A stretch of 64,000 bases of DNA. Origin: Candidatus Uabimicrobium helgolandensis. Lineage in GTDB: Bacteria; Planctomycetota; Uabimicrobiia; Uabimicrobiales; Uabimicrobiaceae. Under the pieces are notes generated by a model. That model saw nothing but the letters and a program-made list of their open reading frames with translations, had not been told where the DNA came from and ran no database searches. The stretch is from positions 736,023 to 800,022 of the forward strand of contig NZ_CP165719.1 of the NCBI RefSeq assembly GCF_041508025.1. The letters are read 5' to 3'. Positions 29,032 to 64,000 of the stretch are shown here, piece by piece. The first letter of the stretch is position 1. Every line of letters begins with the position of its first letter. The translations under genes and the position numbers were made by a program.

Positions 29032-29109
29032 AATAGACCTTTCTTTATTCTGTTATGTTTCAATGGCGTAATCTTAAATTATGTAAAAAATATGATCTTT
29101 ATATTTGTA

Positions 29110-29358
29110 GGGCGTGTCATCATTCAAAATATTGTGTGTTTTTTCGAGCCCGAGCCCGTTTGCGAAACTTTCACTAACAATTTATCAAAGAAGCAAAGTT
29201 TCTTTTTCCATCGCAAAAAACTAGTATTGAACCAATAAATCACTTTCTGTCGCTCTCAAAAAGTTTTCGGACGCGGGCTCGCAAACGGGCTCAATACTAC
29301 TGGCGTATCATTAAATGAATCCGTTATATTTTTATCTGTATTGAATGATGACAGGCCC
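29110..29358 (-). mobile_element. MITE copy A (inverted orientation, about 249 bp, internal 12-bp deletion)
   Basis: Its terminal inverted repeats are gggcgtgtcatcattcaa…ttgaatgatgacaggccc. The interior is the reverse complement of copies B and C. Confidence 0.85.
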
Positions 29359-29445
29359 TAAATGTTTGCGATGTAACAAAATAACTTTTTTAGTTGGGGT
29401 AACCTCATAATTACACAATTATGAGATCGTACCCATTTAGATAAA

Positions 29446-35483: not shown

Positions 35484-35499
35484 TTAGTTTCGGAGTGTA

Positions 35500-35766
35500 G
35501 GGCGTGTCATCATTCAATACAGATAAAAATATAACGGATTCATTTAATGATACGCCAGTAGTATTGAGCCCGAGCCCGTTTGCGAGCCCGCGCCCGAAAA
35601 CTTTTTGAGAGCGACAGAAAGTGATTTATTGGTTCAATACTAGTTTTTTGCGATGGAAAAAGAAACTTTGCTTCTTTGATAAATTGTTAGTGAAAGTTTC
35701 GGAAACGGACTCACAAATGGGCTCGGGCTCGAAAAAACACACAATATTTTGAATGATGACACGCCC
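35500..35766 (+). mobile_element. MITE copy B (267 bp)
   Basis: The 19-bp TIR is gggcgtgtcatcattcaat/…attttgaatgatgacacgccc. Internal 25-bp inverted repeats gagcccgagcccgtttgcgagcccg / cgggctcgcaaatgggctcgggctc are present. It is about 98% identical to copy C. Confidence 0.9.
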
Positions 35767-36020
35767 TGGTTAAAAATAATTTACTGATTTTATCTGTCGC
35801 GACTATGTACGTCCAGATAACCAGTTCATTAGTAAAATTTCTATGTAAAATTTGGTGTATTGTTTTTCGCTACACTCTCAATACATACTCTATATAAAAT
35901 CTTTAACGTTCTAAGTGGTTACTTTTAACTTCTTTAAAATATTTTTCAAAAAAAATAGCGTTTTAAAATATTGATACAAAACGTCTTAGGTAAAACTTTC
36001 TTATTTTTTATTTTTTTGTA

Positions 36021-36055: not shown

Positions 36056-36130
<75 letters not shown>

Positions 36131-37616: not shown

Positions 37617-37748
37617 TTAGTTTTACCTAGCTCAACAAACAATTGAGTTCTCAGAAGCTTTACTTCAAGTATTCGTATATTAAAGACCTCGACTTCAGTA
37701 CCTAAATACATTCAGTGGTACAATTTTTGGTTGAATGCCCTTAAATTA

Positions 37749-38013
37749 GGGCGTGTCATCATTCAATACAGATAAAAATATAACGGATTCATTTAATGAT
37801 ACGCCAGTAGTATTGAGCCCGAGCCCGTTTGCGAGCCCGCGCCCGAAAACTTTTTGAGAGCGACAGAAAGTGATTTATTGGTTCAATACTAGTTTTTTGC
37901 GATGGAAAAAGAAACTTTGCTTCTTTGATAAATTGTTAGTGAAAGTTTCGGAAACGGGCTCGCAAATGGGCTCGGGCTCGAAAACACACAATATTTTGAA
38001 TGATGACACGCCC
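37749..38013 (+). mobile_element. MITE copy C (265 bp)
   Basis: It has the same TIRs and interior as copy B and lies in direct orientation relative to B. Confidence 0.9.
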
Positions 38014-38450
38014 TAAGTAAAATTGACAAATTGCATAAAACTTTTACTACTCGCTTCCGTGATAGAGCTTTACTATAGTCTATTGCAAAGGTTACATTCA
38101 TTATTTGAACGGCTGAATGCATTCTACTTCTCTCCTCTAAAATTGTACAAAAGAATTTTAGTTCTTTTAAAGGCATTATCTTTGGAATCTTTCCAGTATT
38201 ATAAAGGATGAATGTCTTTACTTCTTTGGATTTTTTAGTTTGAAAGAGTGGTGAATTCGCACTATTTTCCTATGTAAGTTATCAATAAACTTGACGACTA
38301 ATAACAAAAATTGATTTACTTACAATGTTTTGTCAAATAAAGTACGCATTTTCCTTTTCTTATTATTCAATTTTATGAGTACGTTTTGAGAAAGCGCTGC
38401 TTACAAAGATCCAAGTAAAACTCCTGAAATCATTCAGAAAGGATTTTCTT

Positions 38451-41774: not shown

Positions 41775-43826
41775 ATGTCCACAAATCAAAATCGACACAA
41801 GGAAAAGCAAAAAAGTCAAACAGTAGAAACGTTATTTACTACTTCACAAAACCTTGTAGATTCAGAAGAAAATCAAGAATTAGCAACACAACATACGATG
41901 ATTGATAATTCTCAATTGCACACGCCACCAGCGAAAACAGAGCATACGATTGTTGAAAATAAGACAGCGCAAACGCAGCAAACAGTTCTATTCAATTCTC
42001 AGGAACGAATTGATTGCGAAGAACGAACGCGACAAACAATAGTTCAAAAAGATTCACTACAAACAAAATTGCCTGCTGTTTTTGCAGAAAAATACGAAGT
42101 ATTAGGTATTTTAGGTTCTGGAGCAATGGGAAAAGTATTTAAAGCTCTAGATAAAACTTCTAATCAACAAGTGGCCATTAAAGTAATCCACAAAAGTCAG
42201 GAAGATTCTCAGGATATAGTGAAGCGGTTTTATCGCGAATCAAAATTACTAGAGAAGTTAAATCATCCTCATATTATTAAGATTTATGAACAAGGAGAAT
42301 ATGAAGGACAACCTTATTTTGTCATGGACCTTGTACAGGGAACAACTTTAACAGCTGTATTGAAACAAAAAAATTATCCACTAAGACGCAAATTATCTTT
42401 ATTAATCCAAGTGCTTGAGGCAGTTGATTGTGCTCATAACGAAGGTGTCATTCACCGTGATTTAAAACCAGACAACATAATGGTGACTCCAAAAGCAAAA
42501 GCCCTTGTTATGGATTTTGGTATCGCACGCGATCAAGATGATCAAAACGCAACTAAATTAACAAAAACTGGCATGTTAGTAGGAACACCTCTTTATATGT
42601 CTCCAGAACAAATTAACGGAGAGAAAGTAACAGATGCCAGCGATATTTATACCTTGGGTGTTATTATGTATGAAATCATTACTGGAAAAGTCCCTTTTTG
42701 CGGAAATCTTAGCAAGATTATGTGGCAAGTAGCTCACAGTGATCCTACCCATCCTCGCGAAGTGTCCAACAATATAGCTAAAGATTTATCAAAAATATGT
42801 TTGAAAGCTATGGCAAAAGAACAAGAGGAACGTTATACAACAGCAAAGGCTATGGCAGACGATATCAGGTGTTATTTAAAGGGGCAAAAAATATCTGCTA
42901 AATCTTCTTTTGGTGTAAAAAAATGGGTCTCTAAAAATCGTAATTCTTTACTGTTACCATGTGTGGTTTTGATTGTAGGACTTATATTTTTAAGTCAAAA
43001 CAAAGACAAAATAACAGGCGAAAATAATGTGGTAGAAAATGATGGGCAAAATTTAGAAAACTCTGTAACAAAACGAAATGATACTGTTAACGATAAGCAT
43101 CCAAAAGATAAGTTTGGTAGACCACACGACGACGGACCACATGGTCAAAATAAACACCCACACAACGACAGACCACACCACGACAGACCACACGATAACG
43201 GACCACATGATAAAAATAAACATCCACACGACGACAGACTACATGATCAAGAGCCAAATGACGAAGACAAACATTCAGAAGATGGGAGACTGCATAAAGA
43301 ACCGCACCATAAAAATAAACGCCCAGGTAGATCACATGACAAAGAACTACACGACGAAGATAAACAGCCCAGAAATAATTTTGGCAGACATCATGGCAAA
43401 AATAAACGCTCAGAAAATAGTAGATTGCATGATAGAGATAAACGCCGTAATAAACTTGACAAGCCAATAGATGAAGAGTTTTTCGATGAAGAACTCGAAG
43501 ATAATTTTGGCGAAGATAGACCACGTCGCCGTAGATTTGAAGATATAGAAGAGCGTGTAGATAAAAGATTTGAACGCGGTAATCGAAATGTAGATAAAAG
43601 ATTCGAAAACGGTGAACACCCAAATCGACGTAATAGGCTTGGATCAATAGATAGAAAAAAAATATCTCGCAGCGAAATGCATAAATTAAATAAGCACTTT
43701 CGTTTTTGTAAAGAGTGTCACCATCTTTTGCGTAAAAACCGTATCAAACCAAGTCGTCCTCCGCGGTTAGCAAAATTACCAAAAGAAATCTTCTTAAAAA
43801 TTAAAGCGCATGCTGAAAAAGAGTAA
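41775..43826 (+). CDS. Membrane Ser/Thr protein kinase with C-terminal His/Asp/Pro-rich repeat region and Arg-rich tail
   Basis: The kinase motifs GSGAMGKV, AIK, HRDLKPDNIMV, DFGIA and SPE are present. A TM helix (LLLPCVVLIVGLIFLS) follows. The tail has repeats of the form [KN]KHPH[DN]DRPH, then R/E-rich segments and a CKECHH motif. The RBS AAGGAG lies 6 nt upstream. Confidence 0.85.
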   Translation: MSTNQNRHKEKQKSQTVETLFTTSQNLVDSEENQELATQHTMIDNSQLHTPPAKTEHTIVENKTAQTQQTVLFNSQERIDCEERTRQTIVQKDSLQTKLPAVFAEKYEVLGILGSGAMGKVFKALDKTSNQQVAIKVIHKSQEDSQDIVKRFYRESKLLEKLNHPHIIKIYEQGEYEGQPYFVMDLVQGTTLTAVLKQKNYPLRRKLSLLIQVLEAVDCAHNEGVIHRDLKPDNIMVTPKAKALVMDFGIARDQDDQNATKLTKTGMLVGTPLYMSPEQINGEKVTDASDIYTLGVIMYEIITGKVPFCGNLSKIMWQVAHSDPTHPREVSNNIAKDLSKICLKAMAKEQEERYTTAKAMADDIRCYLKGQKISAKSSFGVKKWVSKNRNSLLLPCVVLIVGLIFLSQNKDKITGENNVVENDGQNLENSVTKRNDTVNDKHPKDKFGRPHDDGPHGQNKHPHNDRPHHDRPHDNGPHDKNKHPHDDRLHDQEPNDEDKHSEDGRLHKEPHHKNKRPGRSHDKELHDEDKQPRNNFGRHHGKNKRSENSRLHDRDKRRNKLDKPIDEEFFDEELEDNFGEDRPRRRRFEDIEERVDKRFERGNRNVDKRFENGEHPNRRNRLGSIDRKKISRSEMHKLNKHFRFCKECHHLLRKNRIKPSRPPRLAKLPKEIFLKIKAHAEKE

Positions 43827-50295: not shown

Positions 50296-50543
50296 TAGAA
50301 CTTTCCCAAAAATATTACGTTTGAGTTATAAGGGACGCTCCCATAGAATGGAGACACCATTGTTTTATTCAAGTAAAACTACATTTCATTTTGTAATGTA
50401 GTTTCAGAGAACTGTACTCCTTAAACAAAGTATTCATATTTCGAAATAAAAAATAACAGTACAAAAGAATATTGCATTCTAAACAGCTAGAAATTATAAT
50501 CAAAAATCCACCGACTGCTAACTTTATTTTAGAAAGGCAACAG

Positions 50544-53500
50544 ATGATTCGAAAATTTATTGTATGTGTTTTTGCCATTTGCAGCTTAAACATTTACGCG
50601 AACGATGGGGTTATAAATGGTCGCGACGATGTTGAATTCGCAAAGGCCTTAGCTCGTAGTGGATATTATGATTTAGCAGAAGATATCCGCCAGCTTATCC
50701 AACAAAAAGGTTCTAGGCAACAACGTAAAGAAACAGAATTACTGAGATGTTTATTTATTAAAGAAAAAGCTCAGCGTGAACCTGACCCACAAAAAAAGAA
50801 AAACACATATAGCGAAGCTATACAATGTTACGAAAGTCGCCTCGGATCTGTTGGCGGAATTGAAAATGCAAAGTTAAAATTAGAGCTTGCCGATTTAATG
50901 GTAACACAAGCACAAGAAATTATTGAAGAAAGTCGTCAAAAAAACGAACAGATCTCAGGAGTAAATGAAATACTTGCTGGTGCAGGAAAACGTTTTCGCG
51001 AAGTTAAAAGTGAATATGACGATGCAGGAACAAATCTCGAAGCAAAATCAGCAACTGTTCGCGACAAAGCAAACCTTCGTTATCATTCGTGGTATGGTTT
51101 GTGCCGCGTTTACTATTTTCAAGGACTAGCCGGTGGCCAAGGCAAGCTAGATATGTGTAGCAGTGAACTAGAAAACTACATGGGTGATTATGAAGGGCTT
51201 ATTGGTTCTTACTACGCAATGCTACTTAACGGACTCGTTTTGCACGAGAAAGGTTCTTACGGTGACGCTATTATATTCTACGATGGAGTTTTACGCCCTC
51301 TTATGAATGTTGATCACCCCAAAGCTATAGAACTAAGTATTCAATCGTGCTACTATCAAATACAAACTTACAATAAATGGAAAAGATTTTCTAAATCTGC
51401 ACAACTTGCCGGTGACTTTGAAAAACATATGAATGACAAGTTGGCAGTGAAGTTGGAACGCGAAAGCTATGGACAAGCACTCTTATTAGAATTAGGTAGA
51501 GCTTATGTTGGTCAAGGTGAATATGGAAAAGCTCTTAAAATAGCCGAAAAAATAGCTGGTCTGCAAACTTACTGGTCAATAGTTGCTAAAAGATTACTAC
51601 TTGAGTGGGGAAAGTTAAGTCCGACGGCCTTACAAAATGCTAAAAATGCTCATTTAGTGGCGAGTGGACTTGCCAGTAAAGAAGAATATCACGAAGCTAT
51701 TCTTGCTTATCTTAAGGTGATTAAGTATTCTAAGAAAAAGTCTGACATTGCTAAGTATGCTATTGATTCTTGGGAAAAGATGGGGCAACTTTATTGGCAC
51801 CTTGGTTTATATCAAGAATCGGCAATGTGTTATGAAACATGTGCTACAAGTAAAAAATATCGCCTTAAAAAAGTAGTGGAAAAAAAGATAAATGGTAAAA
51901 TTGTTGAACAAAAAATTAGTATTACCGCAAAATCCGCTTACTGGGCGTATCGCGGCTTCAAAGAAGCCTACAAGCAAACCAAAGATGGCTACTTAAAAAA
52001 TAAATCAGATAAAATGCGTAATTATCTGGTTAAAAAATATAGTAATTCTCCTTATGCGAAAAACCTTTCCTATAGTGCGGCAGACGACAAAGAACGCATT
52101 GCTCGCTCCACAAAGAATTATGTTGCTTCTGCTAAGGCATACGAAAAAGCTGCTAATGCTTATCGTAGTGTTTCACCACAAGCAGATGCTTACGAACGTT
52201 CACTTGTGAATATTGGTAAGTGCTACTACAATGCAGCGAAGAAATATGAGCAAAAAAGTAAAACCTCAACAAAGAAGCCTGGCTCATTTCGTATGAATAA
52301 TAAATCCGAAAGCCTATACAAACGCGCAGTTTCGGAACTTAAAAATTATCATACCTACACAAAACAAAATCGTTTATCTGATTTAGAACTTGATAAAAAA
52401 TCTCGCCGTAAAGAAGCAATGGCAGAGTCCTTTTATTTCTTGGGACGTTCTTATTTAAGATTAAAAGATGTTGCTAGAGGAAGTAAGTATTTAGAGACAC
52501 TATGTGAAAGATATCCAGAACAGTCTGACATGTTAGCACAAGCAACTTATCTACTTGTTAAATCAAACCTCAATGCTAATAATTTAAAAAAAGCAGAGAG
52601 CTTTATTAAACGTACAGAAAAAATATATGGCGCAAAAGGTGGTTCTTCCGCAAGCGCTATCTATCGCAGTGCTGCTTACAACCTGGCTGGAAGAAAATAT
52701 TATTCTCTTGCTGCAAATGCTGACGAAAAATATGACGCTCTAAAAAAGAAAGACACTCTAGATCAAAAAGAACTAAAAAAAGCTTTGGATCTCAGAGTTG
52801 ATTATTACACAAAAAGCGCTGATTATTTGAATAAATGGTATTTGTATCGCAGCAGCTTAAAAGTAAATTCATTGGACTGGATTGCTAGTACACAAGTGAT
52901 CACTGCTAAATTGCTTAAAGAAACTGGACAAACACAAAAAGCAAATACAATGTTCAGTAGTGCACTTAAAGTATTTCGCAAGTGCCTTTCTCGTAATAAA
53001 GACCCTAAAAAAGAAAAAGAACTCCAAGAAAAAACAGCAGAATGTGCAATAGAAACAGGAAATTGGGAACAAGCAATTTATGTTTTTTATCCTATTTTTG
53101 CTCAAGACCGTATAGAACGCAAAGAGAAAAATGATTCTCAAACAGAAGATGCACTATACCTTGATTATTTATCGCGTATACTAGCAGGATTAGCGCAACA
53201 AGTGTCCTACAAAGACGCAGATAAACTACACAGTTTTTTGCAGACTTACCTCAGCAAGGAATTAGTAAGCGATATAAGTAAACATATTCCAACAAAAGTA
53301 TCAGAAACAGTATTTTATAACGAATACATTCGCGCACAAATTATTATTGCCAAAGTAAATGACTCGGCTCTAAGTGATGGTGAGCGTAAAGAATTGTCTG
53401 ATGAATTTAATAAGCAAAAAGATGAACTAAATCAAATCACAGAGGAAGAACGTCTTGATCGAGGTATTAAAACACTACAAGTGACATATCGCGACAAAGC

Positions 53501-53834
53501 TCTTAATCTCATTGAGGAAAAATTACCACAAAATTCAAAAGAAGCGCATGGAGATGCTGGACAACGTATCAAAAATATGTGTCTTTACTTATCATATGAC
53601 TACACATCTAAGCTTCTCGATCGCCTATCTCCATATCAAAATCCACAAGTTCGCTTTGGAAATTACGATAACCCACAGTGGTGGGAAACAAAATATCGTC
53701 AGTTTCTCATTTTGCAGTTACGTGGAGAAGGAGCAAGAGTCAAAGGGCTTATTAAAGCACTACGCCTCAATCAACGCAAAATGGGTGGACCTGTTTATCA
53801 AAGGAAATTTCAAGAACTGTCAGAACGTTCTTAG
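50544..53834 (+). CDS. Large (about 1100 aa) TPR-repeat protein with signal peptide (GltD/AgmU-like architecture)
   Basis: The start at MIRKFIVCVFAICSLNIYAN has AAAGG upstream. TPR-like repeats run throughout (many A/Y/L-periodic helices). Confidence 0.7.
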   Translation: MIRKFIVCVFAICSLNIYANDGVINGRDDVEFAKALARSGYYDLAEDIRQLIQQKGSRQQRKETELLRCLFIKEKAQREPDPQKKKNTYSEAIQCYESRLGSVGGIENAKLKLELADLMVTQAQEIIEESRQKNEQISGVNEILAGAGKRFREVKSEYDDAGTNLEAKSATVRDKANLRYHSWYGLCRVYYFQGLAGGQGKLDMCSSELENYMGDYEGLIGSYYAMLLNGLVLHEKGSYGDAIIFYDGVLRPLMNVDHPKAIELSIQSCYYQIQTYNKWKRFSKSAQLAGDFEKHMNDKLAVKLERESYGQALLLELGRAYVGQGEYGKALKIAEKIAGLQTYWSIVAKRLLLEWGKLSPTALQNAKNAHLVASGLASKEEYHEAILAYLKVIKYSKKKSDIAKYAIDSWEKMGQLYWHLGLYQESAMCYETCATSKKYRLKKVVEKKINGKIVEQKISITAKSAYWAYRGFKEAYKQTKDGYLKNKSDKMRNYLVKKYSNSPYAKNLSYSAADDKERIARSTKNYVASAKAYEKAANAYRSVSPQADAYERSLVNIGKCYYNAAKKYEQKSKTSTKKPGSFRMNNKSESLYKRAVSELKNYHTYTKQNRLSDLELDKKSRRKEAMAESFYFLGRSYLRLKDVARGSKYLETLCERYPEQSDMLAQATYLLVKSNLNANNLKKAESFIKRTEKIYGAKGGSSASAIYRSAAYNLAGRKYYSLAANADEKYDALKKKDTLDQKELKKALDLRVDYYTKSADYLNKWYLYRSSLKVNSLDWIASTQVITAKLLKETGQTQKANTMFSSALKVFRKCLSRNKDPKKEKELQEKTAECAIETGNWEQAIYVFYPIFAQDRIERKEKNDSQTEDALYLDYLSRILAGLAQQVSYKDADKLHSFLQTYLSKELVSDISKHIPTKVSETVFYNEYIRAQIIIAKVNDSALSDGERKELSDEFNKQKDELNQITEEERLDRGIKTLQVTYRDKALNLIEEKLPQNSKEAHGDAGQRIKNMCLYLSYDYTSKLLDRLSPYQNPQVRFGNYDNPQWWETKYRQFLILQLRGEGARVKGLIKALRLNQRKMGGPVYQRKFQELSERS

Positions 53835-53857
53835 ACAAAGAAAAGGAGGCTACATAA

Positions 53858-54976
53858 GTGGTAACTCTCAGGATAAATATGACAAGATTAGTTCAATGTC
53901 TGATCTTTATGTTAATTGCGATCCATATTGTATCGGCAGATACAATATATTTCAAAAATGGTACGTCGCGTACAGACGTAAAGATCATCAAGGATAGCTA
54001 CGCAAAAATTGCTTACGAATTGCGAAAGCGTACTGTGTCTGTGCAAACAGAAAGAGTAGATTGGATAGAATATTCCGATAGTCCTCAAGAACTTATCGCA
54101 GGTAGAGGAGCTTTAAACAAGGGTGATTACGAAGGAGCTGTTTCATTGATAAATAGCGCTGCAGAAGCTGCTAGTTTACCGCCGGCTGCAGGACCTTGGT
54201 TTTTTGTTTATAGTAACTATCTTTTAGGTAAAGCGTATCAAGGTTGGGCAGATAGTGATCCTCAACAATCTGATTTGTATAAAACTGCTATTAAGCATTA
54301 CCAAGACGCTGCATCTAAACCCGAAAGTCGTTACCTACATGAAAGTTATTTTGGTATTGCACAGTGTTACATTAATTTAAAAGAGTATAGCAAAGCTAGT
54401 CAATCTCTAAGTAAACTAGAAGCTGATGCTGGAAGAAATAGTTCTGACTACTGGAAAATACAAGCAACATTATGGCAAGGCCACAAATCTCTTGCCCAAA
54501 AAAGTTTTACTTCTGCCGTTAGCAAATATCAACGTGCGCAATCCTTAGCAAGTAAAAAAGAGTTGACCAAATTGGAACGCGAAGCAGCAATTGCCATTGG
54601 TAATTGTTACATCCAAGATAAAAAGTTTTCTCGCGCCAAAAGCCATTTTGAAAGCTTAAAAGACGCAGCAGAAAAAAATGATTACGAGCTTCTTGCTGCC
54701 GTTGAAAACGGCCTTGCTATGAGCCTTCTAGAAGAAGGAAAAATAACTTCGGCAAGGCGAAAAGCACTTAATGTTATTCTTGACTATTTTGAGGCAGAAG
54801 AAGAGCGCCCGCAAGCTCTGTTTATTGCTGGTTTGTGTAATGAAAAAGCTACAAAAGAGAAGAATCACTTAAAAAGAGCACAAGCATGCTACCGATTTCT
54901 AACCCAAGGTTATCCAGGTAATCCTTGGACAACAAAAGCACTGCGCCGGTTACAAAAAATTACGCAACAAGAATAA
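53858..54976 (+). CDS. TPR-repeat secreted protein
   Basis: The GTG start has a strong AAGGAGG 8 nt upstream. It has a signal peptide and TPR motifs (LGKAYQGWAD, AIGNCYIQDKKFSRAKSHFE). Confidence 0.7.
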   Translation: MVTLRINMTRLVQCLIFMLIAIHIVSADTIYFKNGTSRTDVKIIKDSYAKIAYELRKRTVSVQTERVDWIEYSDSPQELIAGRGALNKGDYEGAVSLINSAAEAASLPPAAGPWFFVYSNYLLGKAYQGWADSDPQQSDLYKTAIKHYQDAASKPESRYLHESYFGIAQCYINLKEYSKASQSLSKLEADAGRNSSDYWKIQATLWQGHKSLAQKSFTSAVSKYQRAQSLASKKELTKLEREAAIAIGNCYIQDKKFSRAKSHFESLKDAAEKNDYELLAAVENGLAMSLLEEGKITSARRKALNVILDYFEAEEERPQALFIAGLCNEKATKEKNHLKRAQACYRFLTQGYPGNPWTTKALRRLQKITQQE

Positions 54977-55196
54977 AATCATTGCAGTGTTATTGTCGTA
55001 CTGATACAATAGAAAAACATGTACTTTTTTGGTCGCTGCCCAAAAAATAAGTGACTTAATAAAAAAATTATGTAGGGATATCTCTCTTGTACAATAGATA
55101 CTTTTTTAAGTCACTTAATACTTTTGCTAGGTAGTTTTATCAGGTAATTCTGTAAAGAAATTTTTACAGAAAGTTCATTTATATAGAAAGGCAGTC

Positions 55197-55928
55197 ATGA
55201 GTAGCAAAAAACTGCTGTGGACAACATTATTATTGATAATGTCTCTATTTTGTGCAACCACTTTTTTAGGTGCACAAGACGACGCGGGTCTCGGAGAAGA
55301 ATTCCAAGACGATTATACTCTATGGGGTCTTATAAAAGTTTCAGGTCCTATTGGATGGTTAATTATTCTTCTATCTGTTGCGACCTTAGCACTTGCAATT
55401 GAGCACTTAGTATCTCTACGCCGCGATAAGCTCATTCCTCCTGATCTTTTGCAAGAAATTGAAGATCTATTTGAAGAAGAGGCTTATGAAGAAGTCATGG
55501 AGACATGTGCTGCTGAACCAGGCTATTTCACAAATGTAATCGGTGCAGCATTACCACGAGTTAACTCTGGTTATGATTCTATGATGGAAGCTGTACAGAG
55601 CATAAGTGAAGAAGAGTCTGTAAAATTACAGCAGAAAATCTCGTGGATGCAATTGATTTCAGCTGTAGCTCCGATGCTTGGACTACTTGGTACTGTAACT
55701 GGTATGATTGGGGCTTTTAGCCAAATCGCAACCATGTCTGGTGCACCGAAACCAAAAGACCTTGCGAAAGGTATTTACCAAGCGTTAGTTACTACATGTC
55801 TTGGACTCATCGTAGCGATTCCTGCTATTGCCTGTTATTTTTATTTCCGTAATAAAGTAGTTCGTATTAGTATGGAAATTAATGGTATATCTGAAGAATT
55901 GCTAGAACGTTTTAGACAAGATGCTTAA
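55197..55928 (+). CDS. MotA/TolQ/ExbB-family proton channel
   Basis: 243 aa with 3 TM helices and the conserved C-terminal channel helix region (GLLGTVTGMIGAFSQIA…TTCLGLIVAIPA). Confidence 0.85.
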   Translation: MSSKKLLWTTLLLIMSLFCATTFLGAQDDAGLGEEFQDDYTLWGLIKVSGPIGWLIILLSVATLALAIEHLVSLRRDKLIPPDLLQEIEDLFEEEAYEEVMETCAAEPGYFTNVIGAALPRVNSGYDSMMEAVQSISEEESVKLQQKISWMQLISAVAPMLGLLGTVTGMIGAFSQIATMSGAPKPKDLAKGIYQALVTTCLGLIVAIPAIACYFYFRNKVVRISMEINGISEELLERFRQDA

Positions 55929-55947
55929 AATGAAAAGGTAAAAAAAT

Positions 55948-56400
55948 ATGAAACGTCGCAAGTCTAAAGATATGGAAGATATCGAAATGGACATGACTCC
56001 CATGATCGACGTCGTCTTTAACTTAATCATATTTTTCATGTTAGTAACACAAATGGTAACTATTGAACGTGCAGAGTTAGAGTTACCAAGAGCAAGTAAC
56101 GCAGAAGAAGAGGAAGTCGAAGACAAAAATCAATTTATTGTTAATATCCATCAAAAACCAGATGAAGAAGGTCGTTGGATTGAAACAAGTCTTGGTAAAC
56201 ACTCGTGGGCAGAATTGTCTCAACTTCTTTACGAAGAAGCGCAAGCCAAATTTAATGAAAACGAAAATATCTCAGATCGCCAGGTATTAATACGTGCAGA
56301 CATTTTTACACCTTATCGTATGGTTCAACGTGTCATGATTGAGTGCTCAAAACAAAAAATTTACAAAGTTTCCTTTGCAACCAAAATACAATCTGAGTGA
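55948..56400 (+). CDS. ExbD/TolR-family biopolymer transport protein (paralog 1)
   Basis: It has the N-terminal DMTPMIDVVFNLIIFFM signature and TM helix. Confidence 0.85.
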   Translation: MKRRKSKDMEDIEMDMTPMIDVVFNLIIFFMLVTQMVTIERAELELPRASNAEEEEVEDKNQFIVNIHQKPDEEGRWIETSLGKHSWAELSQLLYEEAQAKFNENENISDRQVLIRADIFTPYRMVQRVMIECSKQKIYKVSFATKIQSE

Positions 56401-56416
56401 TTAAGGAGTTTTTCAC

Positions 56417-56917
56417 ATGGCTGTTTCTCGATCTTTAGAAAAAATAGCAAACGAAAAAGCAGATATGGACATGACACCAATGATTGATGTCACGTTCTTA
56501 CTGTTAATTTTCTTTATGTGTACTTTGCATTTTAAAGTTCTAGAAGGAATACTGCAAGCGCATTTACCCAAAGATCAAGGAATGCAGAACACATCAGCAG
56601 AAAAAGATCCTGAAGAACCTATCACCGTAAAAATATTAACATCTTCTAGAGATGTTACGGTTGTATGGGTTGGGAGCGAGCAATTTGAAGGTCAAAGAAA
56701 ATTTACGCGTTTGTTTAACAAAATACGTAGCATTGTACAAGCAAGTCCCAATTCTAATCCACCAGTCGTTATTGATCCCGACATTGATGTTCCTTTTCAA
56801 GATATAATTTCAACGCTGAATGCCTGTCGTAGAGTAGATGAGACCCGAGAAGGGAAAAAACCTCTACAAGTTAAATTTGCGGCTAAAGCGCTCGATGACT
56901 TGGAAGATGAAAATTAA
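56417..56917 (+). CDS. ExbD/TolR-family biopolymer transport protein (paralog 2)
   Basis: The signature is DMDMTPMIDVTFLLLIFFM. The RBS AAGGAG lies 9 nt upstream. Confidence 0.85.
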   Translation: MAVSRSLEKIANEKADMDMTPMIDVTFLLLIFFMCTLHFKVLEGILQAHLPKDQGMQNTSAEKDPEEPITVKILTSSRDVTVVWVGSEQFEGQRKFTRLFNKIRSIVQASPNSNPPVVIDPDIDVPFQDIISTLNACRRVDETREGKKPLQVKFAAKALDDLEDEN

Positions 56918-56933
56918 GAACTTTATATACAAA

Positions 56934-56967
56934 GTAGGGTGTCTCTGTTAAGGCGTGTGACACGCCC
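56934..56967. mobile_element. Degenerate mini-copy or footprint of the MITE (joined terminal repeats)
   Basis: tagggtgtctctgttaaggcgtgtgacacgccctgg. The left part resembles the TIR start tagggcgtgtc. The right part, gacacgccctgg, is identical to the right end of copy B. It also contains the palindrome ggcgtgtgacacgcc. Confidence 0.4.
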
Positions 56968-57354
56968 TGGTATTTGATATATGTTTATTATATATCAGTG
57001 CAACCAGGGACTCCTAATTTGGTAAAGTATTGTGTTTAGTCATTTTGATCTAACAATACTTTAAAATGTGTAATTGACAAAAGGAATAATGATTAGAGAA
57101 GTTTTAAATGAGTGGAAAAAATAGGACATGCTCTGGAAAGTCTTAAAATTATCAAATTTGGAAAAAGCAACTGTGTTGATTATTCTTTTCCGCTCATCTA
57201 CTCAATTTTCCTAAAAATTTTCAGGCCACTTTAAATCGAATTTCCAGGAACAGTTTGCAAATGTATTTTACATTGACCTACTGTTTTTGCTTTGTGGTCG
57301 CAAACCTAAATCCCACCAAAATAACAAGTATTCCAATAACAATGAGGAAAATTT

Positions 57355-58281
57355 ATGTCGCAAAATAAAACATCTATTGCATCGCGAAAAGAGTGGGTTT
57401 CCTTAGGCATTCTTTTCTTTATGGCCTGTGCGATAGGTACTTATATTGTATCTAATATCGAAAATGATATTAAAAAAATAAAAGACAGTTCTTCAAACGA
57501 CTACGAAGACTTTGAGTTAGAATATGACAAAGAGAAACAACAACAAATAAAGCCAACAAAATTTGTGGAAAAAAAGTTTACAGAAGAAAATATTCTAGAC
57601 TCAAAATATATAACGACTGAAGCCTATTATTATTTTGTTCACAAGCTTCTTTTTACGACTAATAAACAAATTGAAGAACAAACAGATCCTAATCTTGGAT
57701 GGCGCAATTTAATAAAAATTAAAGAACGCGATCAATTGCGTGGAAAATTTATGCGCATTAAGGGAGAGCTAGTAAAACTAGACAAAGAAGTCTTAAAAGG
57801 AAAATACGCAGACAAGCGAAATATTAAAGGCCTAGTGGTGTGGCGCGGCGTTATTTTCTCTTCCGATGGTCGCCTGTATTTATTTACTATTACTGATCCG
57901 CCAGAAGGTATCAAGAAAGGACAAGCTGTTGAACTGTACGCGATGTTTTTCAAAATATGGATTTATGAAACAACGTCCGGTGGTGAAGCAAAAAACCCAT
58001 ACTTTTTGGGAAAAAATGTTAAATTAATACCACAAGTTCAAACACATCAACAAAAGAAAATAACTGTAGTTTTTCTCCTCATATTTGCAATTACTTGTAT
58101 TTTACTAGGGTATGGAATTGTTGTAGAACGACAACAAGCGAAAAAATTTAGCAATGCTTATGCTGAACGAAAATTAAAGCGTCTGAAAGAAAAGCGCGAA
58201 AAGCGTGAGAAAAAAGTTGGTGAGAAAGACGAAAACGAGAAAGACGAAAACGAGAAAGATGAAGATAAAGATATCTCGTAG
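57355..58281 (+). CDS. Bitopic membrane protein with C-terminal KDENE repeats (hypothetical)
   Basis: It has an N-terminal TM and a second TM near residue 240. The C-terminus is EKDENEKDENEKDEDKD. The RBS GAGGA lies upstream. Confidence 0.5.
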   Translation: MSQNKTSIASRKEWVSLGILFFMACAIGTYIVSNIENDIKKIKDSSSNDYEDFELEYDKEKQQQIKPTKFVEKKFTEENILDSKYITTEAYYYFVHKLLFTTNKQIEEQTDPNLGWRNLIKIKERDQLRGKFMRIKGELVKLDKEVLKGKYADKRNIKGLVVWRGVIFSSDGRLYLFTITDPPEGIKKGQAVELYAMFFKIWIYETTSGGEAKNPYFLGKNVKLIPQVQTHQQKKITVVFLLIFAITCILLGYGIVVERQQAKKFSNAYAERKLKRLKEKREKREKKVGEKDENEKDENEKDEDKDIS

Positions 58282-58360: not shown

Positions 58361-58798
58361 TTATTGTAAGTTCTCAGCGCGTTTTTTCAAAGCGTTCATT
58401 GAATCGACTAAGCTGACGTTCTTTAATGTGTTCATTATTTTTTTAGGAACCCATAGCCCTAACTCTATTTCGAAATTACAAGTTGCTGATGTTGTTTGGT
58501 CGTTTACTTTAGCAAAGACGTAACTACCTTCAATGTTTTTGAGATCACCACCAACATAGCCCCAAGTTAGAGTGTGTTTTTCTTCGTCGTACTCGTAGCG
58601 CAGGGTATAGTTTAATTTTTTTACAAGTATTTTTACATCGTACTCTACAATAATAGGACGATTTTTTGTATCTCTTTCTAAAACAGATATGTTTTTGATT
58701 GTGTCTTGCCACTGTGGGTATGTTTCAAAATCGCAGATAGTTTTGTAGCATTTTTCGATATCTGTATTTATCATTATTGTTTTTTGTTGTTTTTCCAT
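58361..58798 (-). CDS. SRPBCC (polyketide cyclase/dehydrase-like, RatA-like) family protein
   Basis: 145 aa. INTDIEKCYKTICDFETYPQW is a typical SRPBCC N-terminal beta-strand/helix. The RBS GAGGA lies upstream. Confidence 0.6.
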   Translation of the reverse strand: MEKQQKTIMINTDIEKCYKTICDFETYPQWQDTIKNISVLERDTKNRPIIVEYDVKILVKKLNYTLRYEYDEEKHTLTWGYVGGDLKNIEGSYVFAKVNDQTTSATCNFEIELGLWVPKKIMNTLKNVSLVDSMNALKKRAENLQ

Positions 58799-58818
58799 CT
58801 TTTCCTCAGGAGTTACCT

Positions 58819-59835
58819 ATGAAATGGCTATATTGTGTTTTTCTTATTTGCGTGCCAATATTTAGTCAGCAGCAAAGATCGGATACTATTGTAGCTATTG
58901 TAAACAAAGATATAATAACATATGGAGATGTACTCAAAAAAGTAAAAAGTATCATTCAGAGTATTGAAGCTTCCGGCTTGCCAAGAAAGCAAAAAGAATT
59001 ACGTAAAGCAGCAAGTATGCAAGCAAAATTACGTGATATGGTCGATACACTACTTATGCAGCAAGAAGCTAAAAAATATAAGCTAGAGCTGCCTAATCGC
59101 GAAAATATTAAGAAGCAAGTTGAAAAACAGCTAAAGAAACAAAAAGAAACACGTGGGCTAGATGAATTTGCTCTAGAAGACGTTTTTTATTCGCGAGAAT
59201 TATTACGCAACTTGCTACAAGCTCGTTCTGCATACTCTCAAGGGGGTGAACGGCGTGCTGATATTGATACTTTTGTACAACCCGCTGAAATTTGCCAGTA
59301 CTATAAAGATAACCTTGGTAAATATACCAAACCTCCTAAGATAAAAACGCGTATTATAACTTTGTTTTACAGTAAAAATGATGGCCGTGAACAAACACGC
59401 GCCAAAGCAGAATCAATTGTTCGCGAACTTCGTAACGAAGCTGATTTTGCAGAAATAGCAAAACTATACTCTAATGACCCTTATGCTGAAAGCGGTGGAG
59501 ATTGGCCGCGAAAATTAAAAGATAATAAAGAAGTATGGGATTTTATCGGTAAAGGGGAATTGCCAAAAGAAGTAGATGATATTGCTTTTAGTATGAGCAA
59601 AGGAGAAATAAGCGAACCTATCATGCTCGATGGTGAATCCTACTGTCAAATTGTGAAAATAGAAGATATGGTAGAAGGAGGAGCCGTTCCTTTTACAGAA
59701 GTACAGCCTGAAATACGCCGTCGATTGCAAAATGAAAAAATAGTAAGCGCTTTGAAAGGTATGCTTACTCAACTTCGTCGTCGATCTTTTTTATGGCCAG
59801 AGAACATTTTTCGTAATCCAAACGAATTAGAGTAA
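58819..59835 (+). CDS. SurA-like periplasmic chaperone / parvulin-type peptidyl-prolyl isomerase
   Basis: The signal peptide is MKWLYCVFLICVPIFSQ. A SurA-N-like helical region is followed by a PpiC/parvulin domain (FAEIAKLYSNDPYAESGGDW…GEISEPI). GGAG lies 6 nt upstream of ATG 58819. Confidence 0.7.
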   Translation: MKWLYCVFLICVPIFSQQQRSDTIVAIVNKDIITYGDVLKKVKSIIQSIEASGLPRKQKELRKAASMQAKLRDMVDTLLMQQEAKKYKLELPNRENIKKQVEKQLKKQKETRGLDEFALEDVFYSRELLRNLLQARSAYSQGGERRADIDTFVQPAEICQYYKDNLGKYTKPPKIKTRIITLFYSKNDGREQTRAKAESIVRELRNEADFAEIAKLYSNDPYAESGGDWPRKLKDNKEVWDFIGKGELPKEVDDIAFSMSKGEISEPIMLDGESYCQIVKIEDMVEGGAVPFTEVQPEIRRRLQNEKIVSALKGMLTQLRRRSFLWPENIFRNPNELE

Positions 59836-61767: not shown

Positions 61768-62829
61768 ATGCAAGACCAAGATCCTAAAGAGTTATTAGTA
61801 CAATACGGGCACATCCTTGCTTTTGTTGTTTGCATCGCATTCAACGGTTTTTGGTATATGGGAGCAGGGGATGCAAGAGCGGACGCTTTGATCACCAAAG
61901 TAGAAAGATCGCAAAAAAAGATCGCAAAGATGAAAAGAGCAAGTAAAACACCACCTGACGAGAATATGGACTATAGCAAGACAGTAGAGGCTAACTGGAA
62001 CAACACCACGGCTTTGTCACCTTCTCCAGGATTCAAATCTATTTACCCTTCGGCAAACATCACATTTGAACGCGAAGTTCCTCCTGAAGATCAGTGGATT
62101 AGTAAGCCTACAGGACTTCAGGTTAGTGTTGGTAAAGAAAAACTTTCTTTGCAGTGGCGTGCTCCGTTTCCATTAAGAGACAAAACTGGCAAACAACGAC
62201 AAATGACAAAAGTAGCCGGCTACGAATTAGTAAAACTTTGGAGAAATCCTAAAGGCAAATCCAAGAGAAAGCGCTATACTTTTGGTAGTGGTACTACTAG
62301 CTTTGTCGATGAAAAAGTAGAAACCAAAACTCTATATTCTTATAAAGTACGTGCCTATAGCTTTAACACCGCAGCAAAAGGTGGTGGCGAAGGCGAAGTA
62401 AAGGGAAAGAAAGCTGTATTAAGTGATTTTAGCGGCACCAAAAAAGGTAAAATTAAATCTTTGTATGAGATTGAGCTTTTAGGTGTAGCGGGAGAAAGTG
62501 CTTTTATTAAATTACGTCGTTACTACAAAGGGCAAAATCGCGAAACCACCTGCACCATAAAAAAAGGTGCGGACATTGAAGCCAAAAACGTTAAGGTTTC
62601 TGGTTTAGATAAGCGTATGGATTTTGTTCCTGGTTGGAAGCTTCTTCACTTAACTACTCGTGCAGAACGCACAAGAAAAATCACAAAAAAGGTTTTTGTT
62701 CGTATCAACCCTGATACAGGTAAGGGCGAATACAAAGATGTAACTACTGAGCAAAAATATGAAACCGCTGCGATTATTTTTAAAGATGAGAAAAATAAAC
62801 AAGTAAAGAGATTTAAAACAAAAAAGTAA
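61768..62829 (+). CDS. Membrane-anchored fibronectin type III domain protein
   Basis: It has an N-terminal TM (ILAFVVCIAFNGFWYMGAG). The FN3 hallmarks are PTGLQVSV…LSLQWRAP…GYELVKLW…YSYKVRAYS. Confidence 0.55.
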   Translation: MQDQDPKELLVQYGHILAFVVCIAFNGFWYMGAGDARADALITKVERSQKKIAKMKRASKTPPDENMDYSKTVEANWNNTTALSPSPGFKSIYPSANITFEREVPPEDQWISKPTGLQVSVGKEKLSLQWRAPFPLRDKTGKQRQMTKVAGYELVKLWRNPKGKSKRKRYTFGSGTTSFVDEKVETKTLYSYKVRAYSFNTAAKGGGEGEVKGKKAVLSDFSGTKKGKIKSLYEIELLGVAGESAFIKLRRYYKGQNRETTCTIKKGADIEAKNVKVSGLDKRMDFVPGWKLLHLTTRAERTRKITKKVFVRINPDTGKGEYKDVTTEQKYETAAIIFKDEKNKQVKRFKTKK

Positions 62830-62897: not shown

Positions 62898-64000
62898 ATG
62901 GTACAAACAAATTTCTTCCAAAAAGAAATCAGCTTAAAATTTATTTATTATGGTCGAGACAGTGTAGGTAAAAAAACTACGCTTCATAGCCTACATAAGC
63001 ATCTTGAGTCAAAACAAAAAACTAAAATACAAGATGAAAATTTTGATGATGTGATTGTCCATCATTTTATCCACATTCCGAGAAAAGCACTTGCTGGAAT
63101 GAAAATTAAATGTGGAATATACTGCATACCAGAGGAAGGACTTCACTCTAAAAAAGTACTGTCTTTACTCGAAAGCGTTGATGGGATCATTTTTGCTGCT
63201 GACCTAAATTCTACTACAGAAGAAGCTGCAGAAAGTTATAAAAAACTGGAAGCGGCTTTCAAAAAAATAGACGAAAAACTGATGTTTCGTTCTATGGTTA
63301 TGCAGTATACCAAAAAAGATCTTGTTGATAACGTTGATGAAAAAGTAGAAGCTTTCAACACTTCTTTTAACAAGCTAAAGAAAAAACATTTTGCTAGCGG
63401 AGAAGGTTCAGCTCAAGAAATTCTTGATACATGGGAATGTGTATATTCCCAAGTAATGATCGAAGTTAGAGCAAAACTTGACTCAACGACAAAGAGCATG
63501 CCTAAAACAAAATTGAAGTTTAATTTTAACCGCAAAAAAGAGGTAGAAGAAACGGAAGAAGACGACAAAGGTTTAAAAATACCCAAAAAATTTGCTAAAA
63601 AAGATGAAGAACCCGACGAATATAACGACACTAGAATTGATTTGCATGTTTCAGAAGATGAAAGTAAGAAAGCTAGCGAAATAGAAGTAATCGCAAATGA
63701 AGATAATAAAACCAGCGAAACGGAAGTAATCGCGGATGAACGCAAGAAAGCTAGCGAAACCGAAACAATCGCAGAACATAATCAACATCTTATAAAAAAG
63801 CAAATGCCTATAGACAGTTTCTTCGAAGAAAGTTCTGAAGAAGGGTTAACCAGCGCAAAAACGGAATCTTTTTCTGTTGATGAAAAAGAAATGGATTCTA
63901 TTAACAGACTAAAAGTGACAAACCAACTACTTTCAGAATTAGATACCTCTTTACGTGAACAACGCGCGCCTGAAACTCTATTTTTTGAATCTACCTCCGA
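62898..64000 (+). CDS. MglA-like Ras-superfamily small GTPase with long acidic repetitive C-terminal extension (3' end outside window)
   Basis: The N-terminal 150 aa align with MglA: KFIYYGRDSVGKKTTL matches the MglA P-loop KIVYYGPGLCGKTTNL, VDGIIFAADLNS matches VDGVVFVADSQ, and QYTKKDL matches QYNKRDL. The G3/catalytic region reads IPEEG instead of VPGQ. The tail carries KKASE(I/T)E(V/T)IA repeats. Confidence 0.7.
   Translation, partial: MVQTNFFQKEISLKFIYYGRDSVGKKTTLHSLHKHLESKQKTKIQDENFDDVIVHHFIHIPRKALAGMKIKCGIYCIPEEGLHSKKVLSLLESVDGIIFAADLNSTTEEAAESYKKLEAAFKKIDEKLMFRSMVMQYTKKDLVDNVDEKVEAFNTSFNKLKKKHFASGEGSAQEILDTWECVYSQVMIEVRAKLDSTTKSMPKTKLKFNFNRKKEVEETEEDDKGLKIPKKFAKKDEEPDEYNDTRIDLHVSEDESKKASEIEVIANEDNKTSETEVIADERKKASETETIAEHNQHLIKKQMPIDSFFEESSEEGLTSAKTESFSVDEKEMDSINRLKVTNQLLSELDTSLREQRAPETLFFESTS

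Follow-up and report, generated by a model that had tools for sequence, protein, structure and literature searches.

The window analysed here is the whole 64,000-nucleotide stretch of contig NZ_CP165719.1 (positions 736,023 to 800,022 of the forward strand) from the genome of Candidatus Uabimicrobium helgolandensis HlEnr_7, the second phagocytosis-like planctomycete to be described (PMC11481906). Its last 1,103 nucleotides hold the 5' part of a gene whose product begins with a degenerate relative of the GTPase MglA, and this gene is the subject of the present analysis. The start codon is an ATG at position 62898, preceded by a Shine-Dalgarno-like GAAGGTGA, and the frame stays open from there to the end of the window, for 367 codons. 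The features of the gene that lie within the window are as follows.

62898..64000, + strand: 5' part of the gene, 1103 nt and 367 codons of 931, running past the window end.
62898..63488, + strand: MglA-fold G domain, residues 1-197, with degenerate G1, G2 and G3.
62952..62981, + strand: P-loop G19-R-D21-S-V-G24-K25-K26-T-T, which reads GRDSVGKK and not GxxxxGK[ST].
63030..63080, + strand: switch-I equivalent, residues 45-61, QDENFDDVIVHHFIHIP, the least confident stretch of the domain model.
63123..63137, + strand: G3 and switch-II equivalent C76-I-P-E79-E80; MglA has T78-V-P-G81-Q82 and the sister species PEQ.
63309..63320, + strand: G4 T138-K-K-D141; MglA has N-K-R-D, and the Lys and Asp are invariant family-wide.
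63489..63878, + strand: acidic, lysine-rich disordered linker, residues 198-327, net charge -11.
63656..63775, + strand: 39-bp (13-aa) in-frame tandem repeat of 3.1 copies (Tandem Repeats Finder, score 142).
63879..63998, + strand: conserved helical segment, residues 328-367, DEKEMDSINRLKVTNQLLSELDTSLREQRAPETLFFESTS, with a predicted helix at 328-353.

A first-pass annotation of this DNA, made from the letters alone, had seen the gene run off the window. We obtained its full length as the 931-residue protein P0004 of HlEnr_7, to whose residues 1-367 the translated window fragment is 100% identical, so that the fragment represents the first 40% of the protein. The annotation attached to P0004 is only 'pentapeptide repeat-containing protein [Candidatus Uabimicrobium sp. 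HlEnr_7]'. A model of the full-length protein was computed with AlphaFold2 (AF2) from a 45-sequence alignment, with a mean predicted local distance difference test (pLDDT) value of 80.9, and it divides the protein into five parts.

Residues 1-197: G domain, AF2 pLDDT about 90, falling to 64-72 in switch I.
Residues 198-390: disordered linker, AF2 pLDDT <50 except for helices 289-301 and 328-353.
Residues 395-740: beta-helix, Pfam Pentapeptide_3, AF2 pLDDT 98.
Residues 741-823: helical stalk with a DWAHY...GYGT[KR]P signature, AF2 pLDDT about 90.
Residues 824-931: first transmembrane helix, re-entrant helix 873-886, loop and second transmembrane helix, AF2 pLDDT about 90.

The open reading frame (ORF) is thus the start of a 931-residue predicted inner-membrane protein. 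Homopolymer errors are a known weakness of the Nanopore reads from which the HlEnr_7 genome was assembled (PMC11481906), and a run of seven A residues lies at 62970-62976, where it forms both P-loop Lys codons (62970-62975) and the first base of the Thr27 codon. The GKK motif is nevertheless not an insertion or deletion artifact, since the frame is intact and GKK is confirmed in independently sequenced relatives. Nor does the C-terminal extension result from a frameshift, a possibility that the first-pass annotation had raised: the same frame and the same continuation are present in Candidatus Uabimicrobium amorphum, in seven distant homologues and in a third sequence from the genus. When one genome of each species was scanned, U. 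amorphum SRT547 (locus L001) was the single relative, with an orthologous ORF of 953 residues, and a search with that orthologue returned three proteins, namely itself, a 942-residue protein from an ENA/Logan assembly and the 931-residue HlEnr_7 protein.

The relationship of the N-terminal domain to MglA, which had been proposed from the letters alone, was upheld by three kinds of comparison. A phmmer search against all PDB chains matched MglA only, with the M. xanthus chains 5ymx, 6hjh and 6h17 at an E value of 4.3e-11 over residues 4-191 and T. thermophilus MglA (3t12) at 8.7e-9. When 1.84 billion cluster representatives were searched exhaustively with HMMER, there were 1561 matches at E<1e-3, and the 150 matches listed were all of MglA type. 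When the model was submitted to Foldseek, fourteen MglA chains ranked first, with template modelling scores (TM-scores) of 0.80-0.86. For the 367-residue fragment, Pfam gave no match and NCBIfam nothing significant.

The nucleotide-binding motifs were placed concordantly by HMMER, MAFFT and structural alignments, with no gaps through the P-loop. The YYG...GK register is that of MglA, as had been noted, but the P-loop is not the GKTT that was read there: the Mg-coordinating Thr26 is replaced by Lys and Gly21, the equivalent of Ras G12, by Asp. In switch I, MglA Arg53, Thr54 and Asp58 align with Asp51, Val52 and His56. At G3, both the Gly and the catalytic Gln are indeed Glu, with C76-I-P-E79-E80 falling on T78-V-P-G81-Q82, and in none of the HMMER, MAFFT and structural alignments did an alternative register restore DxxGQ; the sister species has CIPEQ where the window protein has CIPEE. 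The reported replacement of the G4 Asn by Thr is also real (TKKD), but this Thr alone is not evidence of loss, since it falls within the family consensus for G4, [NT]KxD (PMC4316618). In a background set of 156 MglA-type domains, T26 was kept in 142, R53 in 140, T54 in 143, D58 in 146, G81 in 145 and Q82 in 144.

The protein was then compared with six features of group 1 MglA, taken after Wuichet & Sogaard-Andersen 2014. It shares the whole-domain sequence and fold similarity (phmmer E 4e-11; TM-score 0.80-0.86) and the [NT]KxD of G4 (TKKD, residues 138-141). It lacks the P-loop GxxxxGK[ST] with Gly21 (GRDSVGKK instead), the Arg53 finger with the switch-I Thr54 (Asp51 and Val52), the TVPGQ of G3 (CIPEE), and the context of either a single domain of ~195 residues or an mglB gene within four genes (931 residues; neighbors scanned without a Roadblock domain). 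With four of the six features absent, it is not to be filed as MglA.

The ratio of nonsynonymous to synonymous substitution rates (dN/dS) against U. amorphum was 0.067 for residues 1-214 and 0.054 for residues 1-100, values that are approximate since dS is near saturation, and the G domain is 85% identical between the species, like the other folded domains. This points to strong purifying selection on the G domain, the pattern that a functional pseudo-enzyme would show. To the extent that sequence can tell, the domain qualifies as a pseudoGTPase, in which the G fold is kept and selected and the catalytic motifs are lost.

The window protein is not alone in this. At least seven further cluster representatives of 889-1024 residues (P0005, P0010, P0029, P0035, P0040, P0069 and P0091) were collinear with the query along their own whole length in the exhaustive HMMER search. 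All seven have a GK[KR][ST] P-loop, a replaced Gly21, a lost PGQ and an intact NKxD, together with Pentapeptide_3, the DWAHY...GYGT[KR]P stalk and a C-terminus with two transmembrane segments. On the G domain, eleven sequences form a monophyletic clade in 180 of 200 neighbor-joining bootstraps. P0010 comes from a 'Candidatus Brocadiia bacterium' metagenome-assembled genome, P0069 from assembly GCA_029260735.1 and the other five from metagenomes or Logan assemblies. The clade was recovered by the exhaustive HMMER search only; word-indexed searches, whether the fragment or the family alignment served as query, returned the three Uabimicrobium proteins and the MglA/coiled-coil proteins P0001 and P0154 and did not recover it.

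All eleven members of the clade carry K or R at position 26, and an acidic residue (Asp or Glu) at position 82 accompanies this basic residue in six of the eleven. Position 82 is otherwise variable (E, Q, D, G or P), even within Uabimicrobium (E in the window protein, Q in its two sister sequences), as is position 81 (E, H, M, L, Y, C or G), and the drift at position 82 is the behavior predicted of a catalytic residue that is no longer constrained. G19, G24, K25, K139 and D141, by contrast, are invariant in the clade alignments despite an overall identity of about 30%, and the G5-like [SC]A is mostly retained. The Pfam Arf threshold was passed by four clade members, with the Uabimicrobium proteins and P0069 falling below it. 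Three other proteins have unusual motifs. P0058 (664 residues, from a Logan assembly) combines GKKT with SGE, that is, Lys26 with Glu82, and has a long acidic tail, so that the pairing occurs independently of the clade; P0059 has a degenerate MglA-type domain with GKET and PGD; and P0121 carries a C-terminal MglA-like domain with VPEQ behind an N-terminus that resembles chain-length determinants and tyrosine kinases.

What had been taken for a repetitive acidic C-terminal tail does contain a genuine 39-bp repeat of 3.1 copies, but it is a linker of ~190 residues that leads to the beta-helix and the module with two transmembrane segments. The linker is 56-59% identical to those of the orthologues; the G domain, beta-helix and stalk reach 85-90%. 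The 13-residue unit encodes [SK]K[AT]SE[IT]E[VT]IA, so the K(K)ASExExIAxE pattern of the first-pass annotation is present; there are three copies in the window genome and a single copy in U. amorphum, and the threefold expansion is, by this comparison, species specific. Farther along, residues 328-367 are 98% identical among the Uabimicrobium sequences, with a dN/dS of about 0.01, and this helical segment may be a docking helix.

Past the window end, P0004 scores 62.2 bits against Pentapeptide_3 (PF13576; gathering score 27; E 5e-17), and this match and the ~345-residue beta-helix modeled at pLDDT 98 place it among the Pentapeptide_3 proteins. The C-terminal module has AF2 helices at 824-845, 873-886 and 900-930 and two hydrophobic segments by hydropathy, at 824-850 and 898-931. 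The module is compared below with that of a second U. amorphum protein, P0151, and the loci of this protein and of one further relative are given here.

L002 8001-10811, U. amorphum AP019860.1: P0151, 936 residues (BBM84325.1 / WP_151968485.1).
L006 4960-7602: syntenic relative of 880 residues without a G domain, with an fn3-like gene upstream and lpxB downstream.

P0151 is named 'ion channel' at NCBI and 'Cell polarity determinant GTPase MglA' at UniProt. Like the window protein, it consists of a G domain, a low-complexity linker, a Pentapeptide_3 beta-helix and a GYGTKP stalk with a two-transmembrane pore, in the same genus. Unlike the window protein, in which both are degenerate, it has intact G motifs (GKTT, DRT, FFDF with D58, TVPGQ and NKRD) and an intact filter: its C-terminus scores 37 bits against Pfam Ion_trans_2 (gathering score 22.5) and contains the K+ filter TTMGFGD. 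P0151 is therefore, from its motifs, a candidate single-chain G-protein-regulated K+ channel. When the C-terminal 190 residues of the clade were aligned with the P0151 C-terminus by hhalign, the probability was 99.8% (E 3e-30, 177 columns), and the filter TTMGFGD fell on F-x-P-[GST]-G in the clade and on A-I-I-P-G-T-A-M in the window protein, which thus lacks the selectivity filter T-x-G-[YF]-G-[DE]. P0004 itself gave no direct match to Pfam Ion_trans_2 (PF07885) in its pore module. These alignments suggest that the membrane module is a K+-channel-type pore without the selectivity signature.

Related proteins that lack the G domain were also found. Those at loci L007-L011 and L016 are Pentapeptide_3 proteins of 400-480 residues with a pore-like two-transmembrane module; they share with the window protein the motif LFLDxGCGYGT[KNRH]P and the order of first transmembrane helix, re-entrant helix and second transmembrane helix ending in RK[VL]I/LR. 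The 880-residue protein of L006 has these parts too, and its N-terminus is low-complexity sequence with about eight (QQFQEQPR) repeats. A metagenome scan produced no further full-length fusions, only beta-helix/pore proteins without the G domain and ordinary MglA-type genes.

The surroundings of the gene were examined in the window and at the related loci, where the following genes are of interest.

61768..62829, + strand: 353-residue partner gene with an N-terminal transmembrane helix and a weak fn3-like match, directly upstream of the G-domain gene.
58777-59835 of the window: SurA-like peptidyl-prolyl isomerase (PPIase), which follows the motor cluster below and precedes the 598-residue gene.
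50472-58281 of the window: genes for a 1120-residue and a 372-residue tetratricopeptide repeat (TPR) protein, ExbB, two ExbD proteins and a 308-residue protein with no assigned family.
L003 2395-6618, L004 2348-6559, L005 2425-6660 and L006 16-3624: proteins of ~1400 residues.

The 353-residue gene is separated from the G-domain gene by 68 bp, with no terminator-like site on the + strand, and an fn3-like gene is directly upstream of the family gene in all six loci compared (the window, L001, L003, L004, L005 and L006), the homologues outside the window being 31-60% identical; an exact database look-up of the 353-residue protein found no record. Directly downstream, lpxB is present in L001, L003, L004, L005 and L006, so that the order fn3-like gene, family gene, lpxB holds in L001 and L003-L006. 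Unlike these, the neighborhood of P0151 (FHA, CofD) contains neither an fn3-like gene nor lpxB. The four genes upstream in the window encode the SurA-like protein, an SRPBCC protein, the 598-residue protein of no assigned family and the fn3-like 353-residue protein.

In L003-L006, the gene two positions before the one for the pore-like protein encodes the ~1400-residue protein; these proteins are 40-48% identical to one another, and their sole Pfam match is to model positions 3-125 of Ion_trans, without a pore. We take these positions to be the S1-S4 voltage-sensor part, and a split arrangement of sensor and pore is conceivable on this basis. No homologue of the ~1400-residue protein was detected in the window or in L001, and the idea that the 598-residue upstream protein is a fragment of it was rejected, as the two have no similarity.

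No other MglA-type gene was found by tblastn in the window or L001, and no Roadblock/MglB domain was present among the 36 window ORFs scanned, which include nine between 53858 and 62829, eight on the + strand and one on the - strand. From its gene content, the cluster at 50472-58281 is a predicted Ton/Tol/Agl-type motor set driven by proton motive force, and the arrangement of motor cluster, SurA-like gene and 598-residue gene is syntenic in U. amorphum (L001). Farther away, the window has three copies of a ~250-275-nt element that are 96-99% identical (29109-29361 on the - strand, 35498-35775 and 37746-38022 on the + strand), two of which flank a tRNA gene (36056-36130) and a 514-residue ORF with a weak APH-like match. 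Genes for Ser/Thr protein kinases recur near these loci (window 41775-43826; L001 18667-19773; L002 14933-18811; L003 13021-14232), in agreement with the kinase expansion reported in Uabimicrobium (PMC11032199).

The explanation that we favor, and to which we give somewhat better than even chances, is that the N-terminal region is a hydrolysis-dead, non-switching G domain, possibly nucleotide-bound, which sits as a fixed head on an envelope protein derived from a channel. We infer with strong confidence that it would be unable to run an MglA-type GTPase cycle, since T26K, G21D, R53D, T54V, G81E, the loss of D58 and the species-specific Q82E remove, among others, the Mg2+ ligand (T26), the Ras-G12 glycine (G21), the arginine finger (R53) and the gamma-phosphate sensors (T54 and G81). 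More of the required residues are gone than the first-pass annotation had listed when it predicted a cycle that is altered or absent, and of these two words the first is the better supported. With moderate confidence, a guanine nucleotide probably remains bound to the domain in a fixed and Mg-independent manner, because two Gly and the Lys of the P-loop, and likewise Lys and Asp of G4, do not vary across a clade whose members are about 30% identical. Lys26 would then take the place of the Mg2+ ion, paired with the acidic residue that stands where the Gln had been, and this basic-26/acidic-82 pair would lock a Mg-independent, hydrolysis-incompetent state. More tentatively, the 'set' head on its flexible tether of ~190 residues might serve the beta-helix and the pore-derived module as a point of docking or regulation, and the latter might work with the putatively co-transcribed fn3-like bitopic protein on the cytoplasmic side of the inner membrane. 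The adjacency of lpxB suggests an envelope or outer-membrane-lipid context. The head would not be a diffusible polarity switch, and the earlier opinion that this is not the polarity switch itself agrees with its position at the head of a 931-residue membrane protein and with the loss of catalytic and switch residues.

Several observations weigh against this explanation. The MglA-like fold of the model is partly given by construction, since canonical MglA sequences were in its alignment, and switch I, at pLDDT 64-72, is the lowest-confidence region of the G domain. In Uabimicrobium, Asp21, Glu79 and Glu80 line the phosphate site, and this acidic trio could repel phosphates, form salt bridges with Lys25 and Lys26 and so favor a nucleotide-free domain. 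The relative in L006 has no G domain, so that the core function does not require the head. The link to channels comes through homology to P0151, since the clade C-terminal profile and the C-terminal half, searched against PDB sequences, matched no K+ channel. The G-domain tree grouped P0151 as the clade's sister in 0 of 200 bootstraps, a result that long branches make uninformative, and its beta-helix and transmembrane region is 20-27% identical to those of the clade, no closer than the relatives without the G domain. A single ancestral fusion is for these two reasons not established, and either one fusion followed by duplication or two independent fusions would be possible histories. The linkage to lpxB may be operon inertia rather than function.

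The strongest competitor, which we consider clearly the less probable, is a nucleotide-free scaffold, a class i pseudoGTPase that uses the MglA fold purely as a surface for protein-protein interaction. All of the Mg2+ and gamma-phosphate ligands have been lost and three acidic residues line the site, Pfam is blind to the domain in Uabimicrobium and P0069 (four other clade members pass Arf), the domain is lost altogether in L006, and binding modules of this class are documented, for example AAGAB (PMC12490416). An empty pocket, however, would not be expected to keep the G4 Lys and Asp, G19, G24, K25 and [SC]A while the catalytic positions drift, and the acidic plug is not conserved, as Glu80 is Gln in the sister species. 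The same retained nucleotide scaffold and strong purifying selection could instead indicate a GTPase or NTPase that is still active through non-canonical chemistry, with Glu79 or Glu80 as general base and Lys26 as a built-in cation, and that gates the pore according to its nucleotide state. Rup proteins without the catalytic Gln obtain a Gln in trans, as discussed in PMC4316618, and the basic-26/acidic-82 pairing has arisen more than once independently. This activity is nonetheless improbable, given that five independent catalytic or switch elements are gone together, that the candidate catalytic residues are not conserved (positions 81 and 82, with the residues listed above) and that a tblastn search of the window and L001 detected neither MglB nor a second MglA-type gene.

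There is hardly any likelihood that the gene is the organism's own MglA or a SofG-like polarity switch, with the downstream sequence a frameshift or mis-join artifact. Its best sequence and structure matches are MglA and the genome is Nanopore derived, with the risk of homopolymer errors that this brings (PMC11481906), but the ORF and the domain order are continuous in U. amorphum, the third assembly and the seven distant homologues, the group 1 features GKT, Arg53 and TVPGQ are absent and the protein has two transmembrane segments. We rejected this explanation on the comparative data.

Compared with MglA of M. xanthus and T. thermophilus (5ymx, 6h17 and 3t12), the window head shares the N-terminal register, YYG...GK, the length of ~195 residues, the G4 Lys and Asp and the hydrophobic/Pro context of G3 that replaces DxxG. 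It differs from MglA in having lost G21, T26, R53, T54, D58, G81 and Q82 and in being the head of a 931-residue membrane protein, with no mglB nearby, rather than a free cytosolic protein. Two precedents make the logic of a locked head plausible. MfpB, a GTPase of the MglA family, in its GTP-bound form makes direct contact with the pentapeptide protein MfpA (PMC3575795), which is the same combination of an MglA-family G protein and a pentapeptide beta-helix that the window protein has in one polypeptide. MfpB, unlike the window head, is an active GTPase of another MglA group with its own GTPase-activating protein (GAP) and guanine nucleotide exchange factor (GEF), and MfpA, unlike the window beta-helix, is a soluble DNA mimic that targets gyrase and has no membrane or pore module. 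In B. bacteriovorus, MglA (Bd3734), in which G21 is substituted by S21 and for which there is no MglB, has been argued to be permanently GTP-bound (PMC3983030). Like the window head, it is an MglA of a predatory bacterium outside an MglB-driven cycle; unlike it, only G21 is changed, the other motifs are kept and the protein is soluble with a single domain. The eukaryotic pseudoGTPases AAGAB, p190RhoGAP pG and the degenerate septins (PMC12490416, PMC5593906, PMC10731463) are likewise selected G folds that have lost catalytic motifs and act as interaction modules, although they belong to unrelated lineages and several have also lost G4 and the P-loop Lys, which the window protein keeps.

No description of the MglA/pentapeptide/channel architecture was found in the literature searched: the Uabimicrobium papers do not mention MglA, GTPase or pentapeptide repeats, and a survey of prokaryotic small GTPases (PMC4316618) mentions neither planctomycetes nor pentapeptide fusions. 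The order of MglA domain, pentapeptide beta-helix and K+-channel-type pore is thus undescribed, and the sequences are public under uninformative names. With a canonical counterpart of matching architecture in the genus, a degenerate clade and a relative without the domain, the family provides a comparison series. To our knowledge, prokaryotic pseudoGTPases are barely documented. The combination of GK[KR][ST] with an acidic residue at the Gln position offers a testable idea for Mg-independent nucleotide locking. We know of the link between MglA-family G proteins and pentapeptide-repeat proteins from MfpB and MfpA only, and the fusion supports a general functional link between the two families.

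A wider scenario can be drawn from these comparisons, which we think rather unlikely as a whole. P0151-type proteins would be single-polypeptide 'G-protein-coupled' channels, with the beta-helix as the tether between an MglA-type switch and a K+-channel pore, and the window gene would be a degenerate form in which the switch was frozen by Lys26 and the acidic residue at 82, the K+ filter was rebuilt and a new envelope complex was formed with the fn3-like protein, in related lineages with the ~1400-residue voltage-sensor-like protein, and with lipid A synthesis via lpxB. If this were true, a split machine of sensor, pore and dead G protein would couple membrane potential or surface contact to outer-membrane remodeling during gliding or engulfment. 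Uabimicrobium-type planctomycetes are, as far as we know, the sole bacteria known to engulf prey, and the genus combines this phagocytosis-like engulfment with surface motility. Membrane-anchored relatives of a polarity and motility GTPase are obvious candidates to consider when the engulfment and motility machinery of this host is sought.

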